DNA of 64,000 nucleotides from Octopus vulgaris (taxonomy: Eukaryota). Numbering within the stretch: the first letter of the stretch is position 1; each line of letters starts with the position of its first letter. The notes under the pieces were generated by a model, which searched no databases, was not told where the DNA came from, and was given only the letters and a program-made list of their open reading frames with translations. Where the stretch lies: NCBI GenBank assembly GCA_951406725.2, contig OX597821.1, forward strand, positions 96,100,001 through 96,164,000, read 5' to 3'. Both the position numbers and the translations under genes were made by a program. Shown one piece after another: positions 37,671-45,137 of this stretch.

Positions 37671-39657
37671 TTTAGTAAGAAAATAGCGATTTGCGAAATC
37701 CTAGTGAGTGCCTCAGTCAACATTCATGCAAAATCAAGGATAACAGAATGTAATAGAAGGAAAATTAGAATTAGGATTCAGTTATTCTAAAAGACACGAT
37801 CCACAGAAACAGTAAATCCAGGGACACGTACCGATTTGAGATTAGTGCATCCATCACAGTGTATAAATATAGACAAACATAAGAATGCAGATGACGATAT
37901 GTGTAGCAATAGGGTTCAAAATAAATGCCCTTGAAATAACCAGTATCTTAGAAATCAGTTTATAAATATTCTGCTAAAATATCTCATGAAGTTCATTATT
38001 ACACTGGTTCCACAGCATCTAACTTCAAATTTAGGCTGCATGAACACACGCACCCAACTGCGTACACACACACAACTGTACACACACACACACACACGAC
38101 TGCACATATACACACATACCTTTAATAATAAATGGACAGCTCGGAGTCCCTCATTTACTACACTCATTCCATATCCCAAAGAGAGGAGTATTGATTACTG
38201 TGTCTCGTGACCAATTATAAGTACTGCATTCACATACACAGGGATGAAGTAGCTATATTTATGTTCTCTGAAAGTGCTTAAAAATCTCTGATGTGGGTCG
38301 GGTCAAATTAATCAGCGTAACGAATTATTGATTCGTTGCTCCCACCAATTCAATAAAACTTTCTGGAAAATTACGCTCAGCTGACTTACCTTATCTTAAA
38401 TAACTTTCTTTGCGTTACTTCATATTTATCATGGATACTTCTATTTGAAACGTTTACATCTTAATGCTTCTTGCTTAATTTTACCCTGTATAACTAATAT
38501 TTGATTTCTTACCTCATAATTTCACTTCACCCCTGATATAAAGCCATAATTATAGCGTTGGTTTTATAGCCTTATTCTCTACCGTTGTTTAATTCTTACC
38601 TATATGCCCATTTTTTCATAATACTTTTCCTCCTGTTAATGATACTTTCAAGAATATAATAAATAATAAATAAATAAGCAGTCGCCCTTTTAAAAATCTC
38701 CATCTCATCACTTAGTCTGCTTATCTCTCCCCTAATATATATGTATACAATAACTCTTTAGTTCCCTAAATGGATGAGTTAGGCGCCCTGGTGGTTTGTA
38801 ATAGATCTAATAAATGGAACTAAGATGATACTCTGTCTCCATAGTTCCTCTGCTTGATTGATTTCTCTATATATGTGACAACTTGCGATTTAATTTATTA
38901 CTATGATAGTATAAGTTACTCCCTTTTTCATTATATTTTGTTTAACCAGTATGGCTATATAAATTAACTATTGCATTTACGCCCAGTCGTATGAGCTGTT
39001 AGTGGAACATTTAATATTCTATGGTTTTACAGAAATCTTTTATATTTGTCGAATTTAATATGTTTATTAGTGTAACATTTCCACTAACTGTCGAAACCGT
39101 CGTCACTGATTAGTGAATATATATATTGTCAACTGCATTCTCTGTTTCTCCCCACTCACTCTCTCCTTATACAAACGCATATACACGCACAAGCATAAAC
39201 ACGCACATATTAACAAAATGCGTTTGTTCTACATGCTGTATAGCGTAAGCATTGAAACAAAGCCAGATTACAGGTCAAACAGTATATGAGCATAACCGGA
39301 TGATGTACATAGCGTAAGTTACATCATTTCCGCTCGAAGAGCACACATTTCTTTCTCGTGTTAAAAAGTCATTCATAAAGACTCACGCACATTTTCCAAG
39401 AAAAGAGATACCTTTTAAAAAATATTCGTAATATTGTTTCTCTCTATTCTTAAAATAATCATTTATTATGCTATTCAAAATACATTGCCTTTAAATACCA
39501 TTGATACATTTCCATTTCTCATATTTCAATACATATATCTCTGTCTCTACAGTTCGGTCTTTCAACATTCAACAACGCATTCTGCCAATTTCATATTACA
39601 CACACACACACGTACACAGACACGTATGCATATTTACACACAGTATGCACATATATG

Positions 39658-39860
39658 TGGAGACGCAATTGCCCAGTGGTTAGAGCAGCGGACTCGCGGT
39701 TTCGATTCCCAGATCGGGCGTTGTGTGTGTTTATTGAGCGAAAAATCTAAAAGCTCCACGAACCTGCGGCAGGGGGTGGTGGCGACCCCTGTTGTATTCT
39801 TTCGACACAACTTTCTCTCACTCTCTTTTCCTGTTTCTTGAGTAACGCTGCGATGGTTTG
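39658..39860 (+). mobile_element. SINE family C (diverged, different 3' end)
   Basis: tggagacgcaattgcccagtggttagagcagcggactcgcgg...ttgagcgaaaa. Confidence 0.75.
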
Positions 39861-40411
39861 GTTACCTGCAGTTAGAGAGTTTCTCATCTGGCAAATGCCT
39901 AGTAATGGCTTCTGTGCAGGATATTATTCACCGAATGCTAAGATACTTTGTGATCGCAGACCTTGTGTCATCGCAGTATATGGAGAAGCAGATACTCCAA
40001 GACATCTCGCCCAACGCTTTAACAATCCTGTCACACAACCGCCCTGTAATAATAATTTTATTGCTTCTGAAAGAATGAATTTTGAAGTTAAGCTTTGTGG
40101 GGATTTTATTCAGAGCACAAAGTGTAAGAATACTGCAATAATGCACGCCATTAAACGTGCTAAAGACTGCCAAATTCACTTCCTTACACTGACACACACA
40201 CACACAGACAGACACACATACAGACACACATACACATCTCTTTGTTTCTATCTTCCCACGCAATCACTTTCCCTGTCTACATTCACCAAACCTACATCTT
40301 ATTCACATTACTCCATCTACCAAAAGAGAAACCTGTCAAAAAGCGAGAAAGAATCAAAGAAAACTTCGGTAGATAAATTGGAAGCTGCTGTCAACCTCTT
40401 CTTTGAGCGCG

Positions 40412-40450
<39 letters not shown>

Positions 40451-40453
<3 letters not shown>

Positions 40454-40667
40454 ATGACCAATCAAAATTTTAGGCGCGAAACCAAGCAAATCCAAAACAA
40501 CTCTGGAGCCTCTTTTTTTCACATATAAGAGACAGACTCTAATCTCTCTTTTATATTTTGATAAGCATAACAAATGCGCAACCGGTAAATAGAACTTTCA
40601 CCTAATTAAATTACTTAAATTACTTCAATTATTTGTCAGCATTTTCTTCATTTCCTTTTTTATATAT
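40451..40667 (+). repeat. 5' pseudo-LTR of the PLE
   Basis: ataatgaccaatcaaaattttaggcgcgaaa...catttccttttttatatat. Matches 44920-45137 apart from poly-T lengths. Confidence 0.95.
40551..40594 (+). ncRNA. Minimal type I hammerhead-like motif (U3-A8, C13 variant) in the 5' pLTR
   Basis: Stem I UU-A-UAUU/AAUA-G-AA, core UUGAUAA, stem II GCAU-aacaa-AUGC, GCAA, palindromic stem III ACCGGU, GUA triplet with predicted cut after 40587. PLE pLTRs are known to carry such minimal hammerheads. Confidence 0.65.
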
Positions 40668-40728
40668 CACCACTCGTGTTCGACATCTCCTTTTTTTAAA
40701 TATCATATCCCCGCACGAGATACAGAAA

Positions 40729-42024
40729 ATGCCTACAAAAACTGAAACCACCCTAATCAACTTAAACGAAGAAATCCTACAGGAACTCAAAAACATCAAC
40801 ACCAACCTCTCTGTACTAGTCAACAAATTGGACTCTACTAATGAGGAAACCATTACCGGACACAAACCCTCCGAAATCGGCGATAAGCTACAAACTCTGT
40901 GTGATACGATCCACACCTTTTTCACCACCACCAACCCAGCCAAAAACAAAGAAGAACCATGTCAAATTGATTCATACAAACTGAAAAATCATATAATCCC
41001 AGAATGGAACAAATCCCTCAGAGACAGAAAGTTCTCCTTCTGGAAAATGATTAGAAACAACAACAAGGCCGAGATATACGAAAAATGGATGAACTCTACT
41101 CCTCTAACTCTTCCCCGCAAAATACAATTAAAAGCCATTCCCAATGAACCTGAACCTCAAAGACGACTTAGGGAAAGAATGGCATTAGAGAGACTGAAAA
41201 CAGAGATTGAACTTCTCAAATTAAGGGCCCAAACAAATGAGGAAAGAGTCAAAACAATCGATGAAGAGATCCTCCTCGTAATAAATAACAAGGCCGAAAG
41301 CCTACACATAGAGAAGATCTCCAAGTTATGGAAAGATGACTGCAACAAAGAGGAACTAAAATCCCTACAACGCTGGGAAAAAAGTGCCGCCTGGTTCCTA
41401 AACTATGAATCGACTTTCAAAACGGATTACTCTTCCAATAACCCGTTCATAAAAATGGGAAAACCAGGAACCCAACCACACAACTACTCCGCCAACCCTC
41501 CAACCTTGAACAAAAGAAGGAAACAGCATATTGAAGATGTACCTTCTTACCCCACGTCCATAAGGAGGAACAAGAACCCTGGAAACTCTCACCACCAGAA
41601 TTACATTAACGAATTTCCCTCTTCAAGGAGACGCTATACACAACAACTCAACAACTACTCGAATACCTTATTAACAAATAAAAGAGGGTCCCACTACCAG
41701 GATAGACACAACAACATCCACACCACGTGGGGACAACAAGGTAATTTTCACTTTCTCAACTCTCACAATACACAACAAACCCATACCACTCGATACAAGC
41801 ACCCACGCAGGCCACTCATATCACCACAATCCATCACAACACAAAGAAACACACACCAACACCCGCAATACAGGAACACCCCATTCTATCCACAACCACG
41901 AACCCGAACCATATTTCACAACAAGGAATATAACAAACACACAGGACCTCCTAACACCAACAGACAACCCCTCTACCCCAACCATTTTTTAGACACAGCA
42001 CACAGATACAGGCAAACAAGATAA
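40729..42024 (+). CDS. PLE ORF1, 431 aa: predicted coiled-coil N-terminal/middle part and Q/N/H/R/P-rich basic low-complexity tail; function unknown
   Basis: Uninterrupted frame from 40633, first ATG at 40729 (MPTKTE). Heptad-like segments LINLNEEILQELKNINTNLSVLVNKL and ERLKTEIELLKLRAQTNEERVKTIDEEI. Lies between the pLTR and the RT ORF. Confidence 0.8.
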   Translation: MPTKTETTLINLNEEILQELKNINTNLSVLVNKLDSTNEETITGHKPSEIGDKLQTLCDTIHTFFTTTNPAKNKEEPCQIDSYKLKNHIIPEWNKSLRDRKFSFWKMIRNNNKAEIYEKWMNSTPLTLPRKIQLKAIPNEPEPQRRLRERMALERLKTEIELLKLRAQTNEERVKTIDEEILLVINNKAESLHIEKISKLWKDDCNKEELKSLQRWEKSAAWFLNYESTFKTDYSSNNPFIKMGKPGTQPHNYSANPPTLNKRRKQHIEDVPSYPTSIRRNKNPGNSHHQNYINEFPSSRRRYTQQLNNYSNTLLTNKRGSHYQDRHNNIHTTWGQQGNFHFLNSHNTQQTHTTRYKHPRRPLISPQSITTQRNTHQHPQYRNTPFYPQPRTRTIFHNKEYNKHTGPPNTNRQPLYPNHFLDTAHRYRQTR

Positions 42025-44305
42025 CACAGGACAGGGAAGAGAAACATAAACTAATTAAAGTCATCAATTTAACCAATACAGAACCCAACCCCAACCTTCT
42101 CAACTTACTCTCCAAAGGTCTGAAATTCACCCCCCCCCACGTCCAAACTACTACGAAATGAAGGATGACATTACAGAATTTTGTAGAAAATTGCGACTTA
42201 GTGAGGAACTATTCGACCAGCACAATGAGGATGAGTCACTAGCTAGAAATAAAAGCAACTACACCCCACGAAAAGGTAGAAATAAAATCCTAGACGAATT
42301 CTGTGAGCACATTACAAACTTCCCCTACCAACACTTACACAAACCAAAACCCAAACCAAACCTCAACAAGAAAGAGTGGGAAGAATTAAACAAATTAAAA
42401 AATGAAAGATCTATCACCATTAAAGAGGCCGATAAAGGAAGTGCAGTAGTCTTAATGGAGACAGAATACTATATCAACTTAGCACTCTCCACCTTGGAAA
42501 ATGGAACATATTACGAAAAGGCTGAACACTACAATCAACAGAAAATTATGAGAAACTTAAAAACCCTGATCAACCCCCACAAAGAAGAACTCACTAACAA
42601 AGAATTCAACTTCATCACAAATTTCACTAGTAAAACCAGCCTCTTCTACGGTATTCCCAAAATTCATAAAAGCGAATTAATAAGTAAGGCATGCAAGGAA
42701 GCCACAAACTCTGTAATCAATGTCCCCTCACCAAATGACCTCAAATTGAGACCTATAATAGCAGGTCCCGCTTGCGAAACCCACCGCCTTAGCAACTTCA
42801 TTGATACCCTTCTCAAGCCGTTCCTCAAACACATTAAAAGCTACATAAGGGACGATCTAGATATGCTCAACCACCTCCCCAATACACTTCTTGCTGAACA
42901 AACCCTGCTAGTAACATTCGATGTAGTCAATCTTTACTCCAACATCCCCCACAACCTAGGAATAGAAGCTATCCAATTCTGGCTGGATAATTACTCCAAC
43001 GAACTCCCACACCGCATCAAAAAGGAATTTATTTTAGAAGGACTCAAATTCATCTTAGAGAATAATTTCTTCACCTTCAACAACAAATTCTACAGACAGA
43101 AATCAGGGACGGCAATGAGAACGAAAACAGCTCCCACTTACGCAAACTTAGTCATGGGATACCTGGAAATCACCCTCTATAATAACGTTCTTAACCAATT
43201 TGGCACCACTCTCCACACACACATAGAGAAGAACTGGAAGAGATATCTTGATGACTGCTTCATCCTTTGGCCCGAAACCGTCGAGAAGCTTAACGAATTT
43301 CACACTCTTATAAATGGGCTCAACACAAACATTATTTTCACAATGGAATACAGCCCTCAACAAATTCCCTTCCTCGACATCCTCATTAAAATTCACAACA
43401 AAAAAATAGAAACAGACATATACTACAAGCCCACAGACTCCAAGCAATACCTCCCTTTCAATTCATGCCACCCTAGACACGTTAAAATTAACATTCCCTA
43501 CAACTTAGCCAAGAGAATTTGCACTATAGTCTCCAATAAAAACACCCGTCTCTTACGTCTACAAGAACTCAAGGGCACATTAACAAGCAGGGATTACCCC
43601 ACGTCACTAATTGACAATGGGATCCAACGCGCCCTAAAACTCAGCACGCAGGAACTTAGACGCCCTAAACCTGTTACATCGAAACCCCATACTCTACCAT
43701 ACATCTCTACACACAACCCCCTCAACAATGAAGCTTTTGACACCATCCTCCAGAACATTCCTGTATTACAAAAGGACCATAGAATGAACCAAATCCTCCT
43801 AACACACGAAATCATAAAGAGCAAAAGGCAACCCAAATCATTGAAAACCATCCTAACAAATGCCAAAGTACTGCCAACCACAACAACTAAACCCACAGTA
43901 AACAAATGCAATAGACCCAACTGTGGTATATGCATCAACCTAATAGAAGGTCCGGAATTCCTTTTTAAACAAGGACAACGTTTCACAGTAAAACACAACT
44001 TCACATGCACATCAGAAAACCTAGTATGTGTCTTAACTTGCTCGGGCTGTAATGAACACTACATAGGCCAAACAAAAAATAGCCTCCGCCAACGCATGAC
44101 TGTCCACAGATCCCAAATAAAAATACAGGAATATAGAAAAATAGCATTTAGTGCACATATTGATACCTGTGCCGCACAACTCCATCCCAATTTTAGAATC
44201 TTTCCCCTCTACAAATTTAAAGACAATGCCACTCATACCCAGCGAATAACCATGGAATCCCACCTTATTAATAAATACAGACCACTTCTAAACACATGCC
44301 CCTAA
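41993..44305 (+). pseudogene. PLE ORF2: reverse transcriptase, Zn-finger-like linker and GIY-YIG endonuclease; this copy has a 1-nt frameshift and two motif substitutions
   Basis: Motifs: VINL and LLSKGLKFTP (upstream of the C9 run at 42130-42138, where the frame shifts), EADKG, FYGIPKIHK, LRPIIAG, TFDVVNLYSNIP, GTAM[R]T, YLDD (43244-43255), FLDI, CNRPNCGIC, and NLV[C]VLTCSGCNEHYIGQT...LRQRMTVH...E..LI...P.LN. The 715-aa track ORF 42158-44305 is the part after the frameshift. Confidence 0.93.
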
Positions 44306-44786
44306 CACGAACCCACAACAAACACACTTACACCTGCACACACCCTACACACACCTTTACCCAGATATTAACACCATGACACACACAAATATATGGTTCC
44401 ACACATACACATAATTGAATACGGGTGCAAAACATCCAACACTATTTTTTGGAAATGGCTGTAAATATTGACTTCACACAAATACGTTGCTTCCCGATAC
44501 AGGCACAAGGCCAGCAGAACTATAAATATTGAAAATTGTACCCACACACACACACATATATACACGCGCGCGCGCCCCAACATACATATAAACACACACA
44601 CACGCGCGCGCGCGCACACACATACATACATACAGCTCTCCCTGTTCTAAACGAACTTACTTATCCAGTCAAGCGGAAAATACACTCCCTAACTACGCGC
44701 TAAAAAGCTATTTAAAATATCCACATGACGTCTACTGACCAGCCTGAACAATAAGAATTTTCAACAACACTATTTTCGAAAATCCT

Positions 44787-45000
44787 AAACATTCACGTGA
44801 CCTCTTTATTATGGCCAATAAGAAATTTTAGGCGGGACACTAGCCAAATTTTAACTTCTCTGGAGCCTTTTTTCTTACCCCAACACCAACTTCCATTCAA
44901 ACATTCACGTGACCCCTTCATAATGACCAATCAAAATTTTAGGCGCGAAACCAAGCAAATCCAAAACAACTCTGGAGCCTCTTTTTTCACATATAAGAGA
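44787..45000 (+). promoter_or_regulatory. Putative PLE promoter: two ~112-bp units, each with E-box, CCAAT and E2F-like site, then a TATA-like box
   Basis: CACGTGAC at 44794 and 44906, CCAAT at 44815 and 44927, TTTAGGCGGGA at 44827, GCGCGAAA (reverse complement TTTCGCGC) at 44943, TATAAG at 44992. The 5' pLTR keeps CCAAT (40458), E2F-like (40474) and TATA-like (40524). Confidence 0.5.
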
Positions 45001-45130
45001 CAGACTCTAATCTCTCTTTTATATTTTGATAAGCATAACAAATGCGCAACCGGTAAATAGAACTTTCACCTAATTAAATTACTTAAATTACTTCAATTAT
45101 TTGTCAGCATTTTCTTCATTTCCTTTTTTT

Positions 45131-45137
<7 letters not shown>
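44920..45137 (+). repeat. 3' pseudo-LTR of the PLE
   Basis: Direct repeat of 40451-40667 at an offset of about 4468-4469 nt. Ends in TATATAT continuous with the flanking (TA)n. Confidence 0.95.
45019..45062 (+). ncRNA. Second copy of the variant hammerhead-like motif, in the 3' pLTR
   Basis: Identical to 40551-40594; predicted cut after 45055. Confidence 0.65.

Follow-up and report, generated by a model that had tools for sequence, protein, structure and literature searches.

The window analysed here, a 64-kb stretch of Octopus vulgaris DNA taken at its full length, holds only two reading frames of more than 400 codons, and both form part of a 4.7-kb Penelope-like element (PLE) carrying 217-bp direct repeats (pseudo-LTRs), 99% alike, at its two ends (Table 1). 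The upstream frame, ORF1, extends from an ATG at 40729 to a TAA at 42024 within 472 codons open from stop to stop (40606-42024), and the downstream frame encodes most of a reverse transcriptase (RT) together with a C-terminal endonuclease (EN), with the DKG motif at 42428, YLDD at 43244, a Zn-finger-like C-x4-C-x2-C linker at 43907 and the YIG of a GIY-YIG/CCHH end at 44060. Both the GxKF/Y and the DKG motifs of PLE RTs are present, the former in the -1 frame: the conserved RT N-terminus (KVINL...LLSKGLKF) falls outside the window's long RT frame and sits one base behind ORF1, in a frame open from 41955.

The first-pass annotation had reported an ORF without stops over about 1.4 kb in an endonuclease-bearing PLE, with heptad-patterned helices, a Trp-rich middle block and a basic tail of some 170 residues rich in Q, N, H, R, P and T. 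This description holds in nearly all respects. The open frame, the downstream motifs and the flanking repeats agree with it, the Trp motifs lie at W93-W120 and W201-W216 as quoted, and at heptad positions 20, 23, 27, 30, 34, 37 and 41 a hydrophobic residue is present in 92-98% of those aligned relatives in which the position is covered. The tail (aa 246-431) has the composition described (N 13%, T 12%, R 11%, P 10%, Q 9%, H 9%; 27 R+K vs. 6 D+E) but measures about 186 residues.

Judged by eye from its motifs, the element is a Neptune-like, endonuclease-bearing (EN+) PLE. It resembles Neptune in its GxKF and DKG motifs, the lack of an insertion in the fingers, the CX2-5CxxC linker and the CCHH endonuclease, as well as in its pseudo-LTRs, tandem units and (TA)n flanks; the RT motif-4(B) region and the spacing from the Zn finger to GIY likewise resemble, by eye, the Neptune rows in Figs. 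S1 and S2 of PMC8557442. A GIY-YIG endonuclease with CCHH and an upstream CX2-5CxxC linker was found in the window and in all four related loci scanned (loci with handles in L are described below), and terminal repeats or tandem units recur as the 217-bp repeats of the window, a 3,699-bp tandem unit in L014 and 342-bp repeats in L020.

Between the RT-EN end and the next ORF1, hammerhead-core-like motifs and the same short palindrome were recognised by eye in four of four loci (L014, L020, L021, L035), where the cores are better than in the window; an Rfam search matched no hammerhead family and returned only repeat-driven miRNA and snoRNA noise. Because core positions are altered in the window, the putative ribozyme may be decaying there, or it may be variant in the family. 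In the same four loci the 3' UTRs are rich, directly after the RT-EN stop, in repeated TGACGTCA-like palindromes, which we take to be CRE-like, and the window has a single TGACGTCA-like palindrome near 44727. Upstream of the element, positions 39655-39850 look by eye like a tRNA-derived SINE with A- and B-box-like motifs, and a 240-codon frame at 39751-40473 appears to be a chance product of this sequence and of microsatellites.

The window copy has an intact ORF1 and a damaged RT. Contigs of four public runs, from four studies and under three organism labels, all carry four extra bases at 42127-42131 and differ from the window at two conserved RT/EN motif positions (43118 and 44028), and the position of the GIY tyrosine is altered in the window. 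The four-base gap and the two motif changes, set against all four runs, indicate that the copy is likely dead despite its 99%-alike repeats. At least eight ORF1 variants were listed from the four runs (four synonymous, four nonsynonymous, no stop), too few for a ratio. No RNA run was among the public runs listed as carrying the sequence, which has no bearing on its expression. Summed contig depth in these runs is several- to many-fold lower over ORF1 (40756-42335) than over RT-EN (42652-44389), a difference that 5' truncation and the mapping of reads from related RT families to RT-EN would fit, and which may account for ORF1 having been overlooked.

Table 1. Positions of the element's features in the window
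Feature	Position	Strand	Remarks
(TA)n microsatellite, 5' insertion flank	40412..40453	.	–
5' pseudo-LTR	40451..40667	+	217 bp, 99% alike to 3' copy
Degenerate hammerhead-like core	40559..40586	+	short hairpin and palindromic end, by eye; second copy at 45027-45054
ORF1	40729..42024	+	431 aa, family unclassified
ORF1 aa 5-67	40741..40929	+	heptad-repeat helix 5-42, second helix 47-67; predicted coiled-coil oligomerisation module
ORF1 aa 78-244, conserved Trp-rich core	40960..41460	+	predicted three long helices and P-R-K loop; pLDDT 96, pTM 0.86
ORF1 aa 246-431, basic Q/N/R-rich low-complexity tail	41464..42021	+	composition conserved, sequence not
RT N-terminus, -1 frame	41955..42161	+	KVINL...LLSKGLKF motif, G at 42117; ends early in window copy
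Slippery heptamer T TTT TTA (Phe-Leu in ORF1)	41985..41991	+	in phase for -1 into RT frame; 11 codons before ORF1 stop
Remaining RT and C-terminal GIY-YIG endonuclease	42059..44305	+	RT-like sequence from about 42132
Four-base deficit of window copy	42127..42131	+	relative to contigs of four public runs; splits RT frame
Partial diverged repeat of 3' pseudo-LTR start	44787..44873	+	80% over 89 bp; just 5' of 3' repeat
3' pseudo-LTR	44920..45135	+	followed by (TA)n to about 45187

Conservation and Genomic Context of ORF1

The 431-aa ORF is a conserved, selected and unclassified ORF1. An index-free phmmer search with aa 1-244 against 1.84 billion representative sequences returned 624 clusters of relatives at E ≤ 0.001, 235 of them at 1e-10; the best 150 of the 624, which are 87-536 aa long, were examined together with the query and the protein P0003 (n = 152). 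No PLE RT motif and no CCHC zinc knuckle occurs in any of these 152 proteins, none of which exceeds 536 aa. A word-index protein search found just one relative with the single protein and two with the 77-member alignment, and none of 829-2,365 aa, a result that is weak evidence by the method's own note. The query has no Pfam match at E ≤ 0.01, and of the 77 aligned members at most one matches any given family.

Near-invariant residues are concentrated in aa 93-216, and several core positions are basic in 83-99% of relatives, the conserved basic residues of the core being R100, K101, R109, K131, R148 and R166. The tails do not align, with a median Gln+Asn content of 23% and a net positive charge in 76 of 78 full-length relatives. 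Synonymous sites are saturated between families; for the related pair L020 and L022, dN/dS is about 0.10 in the core (0.023/0.235) and about 0.5 in the tail (0.079/0.16).

Related loci were sought with a DNA pattern built from seven conserved positions of the ORF1 core, which matched 22 loci in metagenomes, seven of them true relatives by HMM and 15 chance matches. A PLE RT adjoins ORF1 in all seven (L014, L015, L020, L021, L022, L028 and L035), with 37-53% identity to the window RT over tblastn pieces. With the window, and with L020 and L022 (93% identical) counted once, seven families are available as DNA; a single metagenome assembly supplied four of the seven loci, which represent different families except for L020 and L022. 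L014 is an intact head-to-tail tandem unit, L021 one circularly permuted unit, and L015 and L022 are damaged copies. A short TTTCCG.ACAAG-like motif about 20 nt before the ORF1 ATG is common to three families (L014, L021, L035). In viral contigs the ORF1 pattern gave no match and an RT pattern one locus; pattern scanning of genome contigs gave 12 matches, and none of these 13 loci scored against the ORF1 profile or RT. A separate related-locus search of viral contigs and metagenomes found nothing.

Predicted Fold of ORF1

AlphaFold2 models aa 1-250 confidently as all-helical (pLDDT 90), with no strand of three or more residues. In its model of aa 78-244 a short helix is followed by three long ones of 33-47 residues; the N-terminus is predicted to be a coiled coil and the core a three-helix structure. 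Foldseek found no match at E ≤ 0.001 in PDB or BFVD. By VIA-align the nearest structures (Z 8.2-8.7, rmsd about 6) are helical bundles of a generic kind, syntaxin Habc among them, and the best hit (Z 8.7, rmsd >6) sits at helical-bundle background, so that neither a known nor a new fold can be claimed for ORF1. A profile search of solved-structure sequences gave low-complexity or generic coiled-coil matches only (best E 9e-4), and no capsid fold appeared among the matches listed in five fold searches. An ESM Atlas feature search with aa 1-250 returned Gag, PNMA and caulimovirus-coat clusters (best 0.84, 107 of 256 features), and with aa 75-245 weaker, mixed matches (0.85-0.87); the Gag-like matches were discarded as below threshold and within the score range reached by shuffled proteins.

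These results support the first-pass view of ORF1 as a protein of unknown family with neither RRM nor CCHC, the Pfam and zinc-knuckle searches being empty and the model strandless. Structure prediction and Foldseek, proposed there as a check, gave a confident helical model and no significant match, and co-occurrence with a PLE RT, proposed there for molluscs, was seen at every true related locus in the metagenomes. Of the outcomes named as fatal to it, neutral evolution (dN/dS near 1) is at odds with the core ratio, and an ORF1 that is simply the N-terminus of one long consensus ORF with the lack of RT motifs among the relatives. The functional analogies drawn with L1 ORF1p and Gag fared less well: the former fails on domain content, given an all-helical model without RRM, and the latter finds a likely counterpart in the mode of expression but not in the fold.

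The ORF1/RT Junction

The main feature of the locus, which the first-pass annotation overlooked, is a -1 slippery junction between ORF1 and RT. In all eight junctions for which DNA is available the frame of the GxKF-type motif holds an in-phase X XXY YYZ heptamer, -1 from the ORF1 tail, L035 being ambiguous. The heptamer is T TTT TTA in the window, L014, L015 and L021, T TTT TTG in L020 and L022, T TTA AAC in L028 and C CCT TTT in L035; four different heptamers are thus used across families at constant phase and place. With shared ancestry ignored, six out of six overlaps tested would hold an in-phase heptamer by chance with a probability of about 1e-6. The RT frame opens 0-12 codons 5' of the heptamer (three codons in L015).

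Two overlapping frames in place of a single ORF are found in the window and in every related locus but L035 (six of seven). The L035 assembly has two undetermined bases immediately upstream and places the ORF1 core in one frame with RT, a single TAG lying between them, so that readthrough is a possible alternative to a -1 shift there; its alternative-frame tail ends in D-H-N-W, as do the L014 C-terminus and a number of the protein relatives, an agreement that speaks for a hidden one-base offset. By arithmetic, the four extra bases of the run contigs make the -1 frame continuous with the rest of RT-EN, and no indel at the ORF1 end was seen among the listed contigs of the four runs that span the junction; taken together, these observations indicate that the window RT is damaged and that the -1 overlap is the state of the family. 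ORF1 as a separate ORF and ORF1 as the N-terminus of one long protein are, given such a junction, both likely to be true.

The protein relatives carry a trace of the same signal. Phe-Leu occurs within the last 50 residues of 65 of 78 full-length relatives, compared with 7 of 78 in the preceding stretch and a mean of 6.5 (maximum 14) after shuffling; the remaining 13 have no C-terminal Phe-Leu. Met, Trp, Gln, Glu and Lys, the residues whose codons never end in T, are absent from the position before it (0/65; expected 19%), whereas they precede Phe-Leu elsewhere in the same proteins in 37 of 71 cases, a restriction that fits a nucleotide signal (T TTT TTN) and not a peptide motif. At the corresponding position L028 has Leu-Asn and L035 Pro-Phe, with the heptamer retained. 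The C-termini of P0051, P0106, P0019 and P0129 have Phe-Arg where others have Phe-Leu, which may reflect other heptamers or another type of shift.

Stop Spacing and RNA Structure

Typical eukaryotic -1 sites are followed by a downstream hairpin or pseudoknot. Here the 70 nt 3' of the heptamer fold no better than shuffled sequences in the seven loci folded (z -1.4 to +0.6), those of the window do not fold at all, a 126-mer of the window has a z of +1.67, and a crude scan for H-type pseudoknots was not significant in any of the eight junctions. The ORF1 stop, on the other hand, lies 11 codons (33 nt) past the second codon of the heptamer in six of eight junctions, and 12 and 13 codons past it in the other two. 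At the protein level Phe-Leu lies 12 or more residues from the C-terminus in all 65 proteins and exactly 12 in 22 of them; these 22 have a median identity of 32%, and no intervening residue is shared by more than 8. At 7.5% stops per codon in the ORF1 frame, about half would be expected closer by chance, the lineages not being independent.

The combination of constrained stop spacing with no significant RNA structure raises the possibility that a ribosome queued behind a terminating one is the stimulator. Disome footprints measure 54-63 nt (PMC12086091, in its available part), from which we infer about 10 codons between stacked ribosomes, close to the 11 seen here if not exactly so. With the stop placed about one ribosome length after the slip site, the trailing ribosome would pause on the heptamer and slip, and enzyme output would rise with ribosome traffic on the element RNA. 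The 11-codon spacing may instead be inherited, or a stimulatory RNA element may be too weak for the scans used. The full proposal, namely a widespread but overlooked EN+ PLE lineage in which a new all-helical ORF1 family is the Gag equivalent and -1 frameshifting proceeds independently of RNA structure through a queue held at the stop, is put forward as a speculative possibility.

Discussion

We propose that the locus encodes the ORF1 of a two-frame, Neptune-like Penelope retrotransposon that is likely translated in the manner of Gag-Pol, giving an RNA-coating ORF1 protein and a minor fusion. Its best-supported part, to judge by the junction sequences, is the frameshift itself, which probably adds a small amount of ORF1-RT-EN fusion to an abundance of ORF1 protein: translation would mostly end at 42024 with free ORF1 protein, and a minority of ribosomes would slip one base back at 41985-41991 and read on to complete a fusion protein, ORF1-RT-endonuclease, of about 1,190 aa. 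With somewhat less assurance we infer that ORF1 protein oligomerises, coats the element RNA and recruits the fusion. Free ORF1 protein would oligomerise through its coiled coil and coat the RNA through the conserved basic surface and the Arg-rich tail, and the N-terminal part common to both products would draw the rare fusion into the same particle; the frameshift ratio would then set the balance between structural protein and enzyme, and the arrangement would favour the element's own RNA. Condensate formation, to judge by tail composition, is plausible.

Several other readings deserve attention. Were ORF1 merely the N-terminus of one long PLE ORF broken in the copies examined, the genuine frame break in the window RT, the single frame with one stop of L035 as assembled and the published description of EN+ PLEs as single-ORF elements (PMC8557442, in part) would all be readily explained; this reading is nevertheless largely refuted already, and we give it next to no credence, since all six further families, among them that of the intact tandem unit L014, have the same -1 offset, since the run contigs listed show no junction indel, and since none of the ORF1 proteins examined has RT motifs. 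Synthesis of ORF1 and RT-EN as separate proteins, by splicing, reinitiation or an internal start, with the terminal Phe-Leu as a peptide motif, is improbable. It would accord with the introns that PLEs are known to carry (PMC4209133, in part), with the failure of the junction scans to reveal a stimulatory RNA structure and with the Met that immediately precedes GxKF in L014 and L035 and the one lying 16 aa ahead of it in L022, but five of the eight junctions (window, L015, L020, L021 and L028) have no Met upstream of the GxKF-type motif, and a simple pyrimidine-tract-AG acceptor pattern lies near just one of the eight. Conservation of the heptamer where Phe-Leu has changed, and the codon-dependent choice of the residue before it, likewise argue against a peptide motif.

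Other alternatives accept the frameshift and concern the role of its abundant product. ORF1 could be a protein scaffold or targeting module for RT-EN, acting in nuclear entry, at membranes or in evasion of silencing, and not an RNA chaperone. The lack of an RRM, CCHC or other known RNA-binding fold in ORF1 and the likeness of its nearest structures to bundles such as syntaxin Habc are in keeping with such a role; we consider it unlikely given a basic, Arg/Asn/Gln-rich tail kept in nearly all full-length relatives despite sequence turnover, the strongly basic core positions, and the excess of N-terminal product that a frameshift would give, which suits a coat-like, stoichiometric role as in Gag-Pol. 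That ORF1 is a highly diverged true Gag forming a capsid-like particle is very improbable: the gene layout is Gag-Pol-like, and the ESM Atlas matches to Gag, PNMA and caulimovirus coats point the same way, but their scores fall within the shuffled-protein range, the predicted core helices are unlike the short helices of which retroviral capsid domains consist, the zinc knuckle is missing throughout, and the linker of 39-50 aa between ORF1 and RT holds no protease stretch. An RNA-coating ORF1 protein expressed by frameshifting is our preferred reading.

The element works like an Athena-type or Gag-Pol two-frame element yet keeps its endonuclease. With retroviral and LTR Gag-Pol it has in common a structural-looking upstream ORF with a basic C-terminal part and a -1 slippery heptamer leading into the polymerase; unlike them, it has no detected capsid fold, zinc knuckle, protease, RNase H, integrase or downstream stem-loop. 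With LINE-1 ORF1p it shares an N-terminal coiled coil (predicted helix 5-42), a basic character and a place upstream of the RT ORF, but ORF1 contains neither an RRM nor the L1 C-terminal domain, and to our knowledge L1 ORF2 is not made as a frameshift fusion. ORF1 is therefore neither an L1 ORF1p nor a recognisable Gag. UUUUUA is the slippery site of HIV-1 gag-pol, according to the available part of PMC12086091.

Closer parallels exist among PLEs that lack the endonuclease (EN-minus). Athena/Terminon and Coprina elements also have a coiled-coil ORF1 upstream of a PLE RT, here joined to it by a heptamer seen at sequence level only, the likeness being one of published descriptions; the present element differs from them in keeping an endonuclease, in inserting into (TA)n and not telomeres, and in showing no pseudoknot in simple scans. 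In a published figure of PLE structures, ORF1 and frameshift marks reportedly belong to the Athena rows. In the accessible portions of the literature, the Fig. 1 legend of PMC8557442 allows PLEs an ORF1 set apart by a frameshift with a pseudoknot, PMC6431247 associates possession of two ORFs with EN-lacking PLEs, and PMC13159263 describes ORF1 of Coprina-1_Alen as having coil and disordered regions; Neptune and Coprina group together weakly, and two Chlamys families of Chara have an upstream zinc-knuckle ORF (both PMC8557442). A PLE ORF1 with a frameshift has been reported already, apparently for endonuclease-less PLEs.

Canonical EN+ PLEs, by contrast, are described as single-ORF elements in the parts of PMC8557442, PMC6431247 and PMC4209133 that were available, whereas here an ORF1 of 350-470 aa overlaps RT in the -1 frame. 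A killifish Neptune carries a 420-nt upstream ORF that has no known similarity and does not overlap RT (PMC12602865), and esterases are mentioned in Neptune-like PLEs of fish and molluscs (PMC5408684). No such ORF1 is described in the available portions of PMC3846280, PMC6515669, PMC4209133, PMC13282606 and 10.64898/2026.07.22.740005, and that of PMC5009743 makes no mention of Penelope or Athena. In the literature searched we found no ORF1 with a -1 frameshift in C-terminal EN+ PLEs, and prior notice is possible.

How PLE RNA is packaged and reaches the RT is an open question, partly because EN+ PLEs have been described without an ORF1. This question becomes approachable with a large family whose ORF1 is conserved and foldable and comes with a short recoding cassette, and a fixed stop spacing acting as stimulator would, if true, be a frameshift mechanism of general interest. 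Our results also suggest that annotating the RT ORFs of such elements from their first ATG truncates them, with loss of both the conserved N-terminal motif and a 420-aa fusion partner. Finally, the two-frame layout may connect EN+ elements of the Neptune type with those EN-minus PLEs that have two ORFs, a link that would bear on which layout was ancestral in telomerase's sister group.
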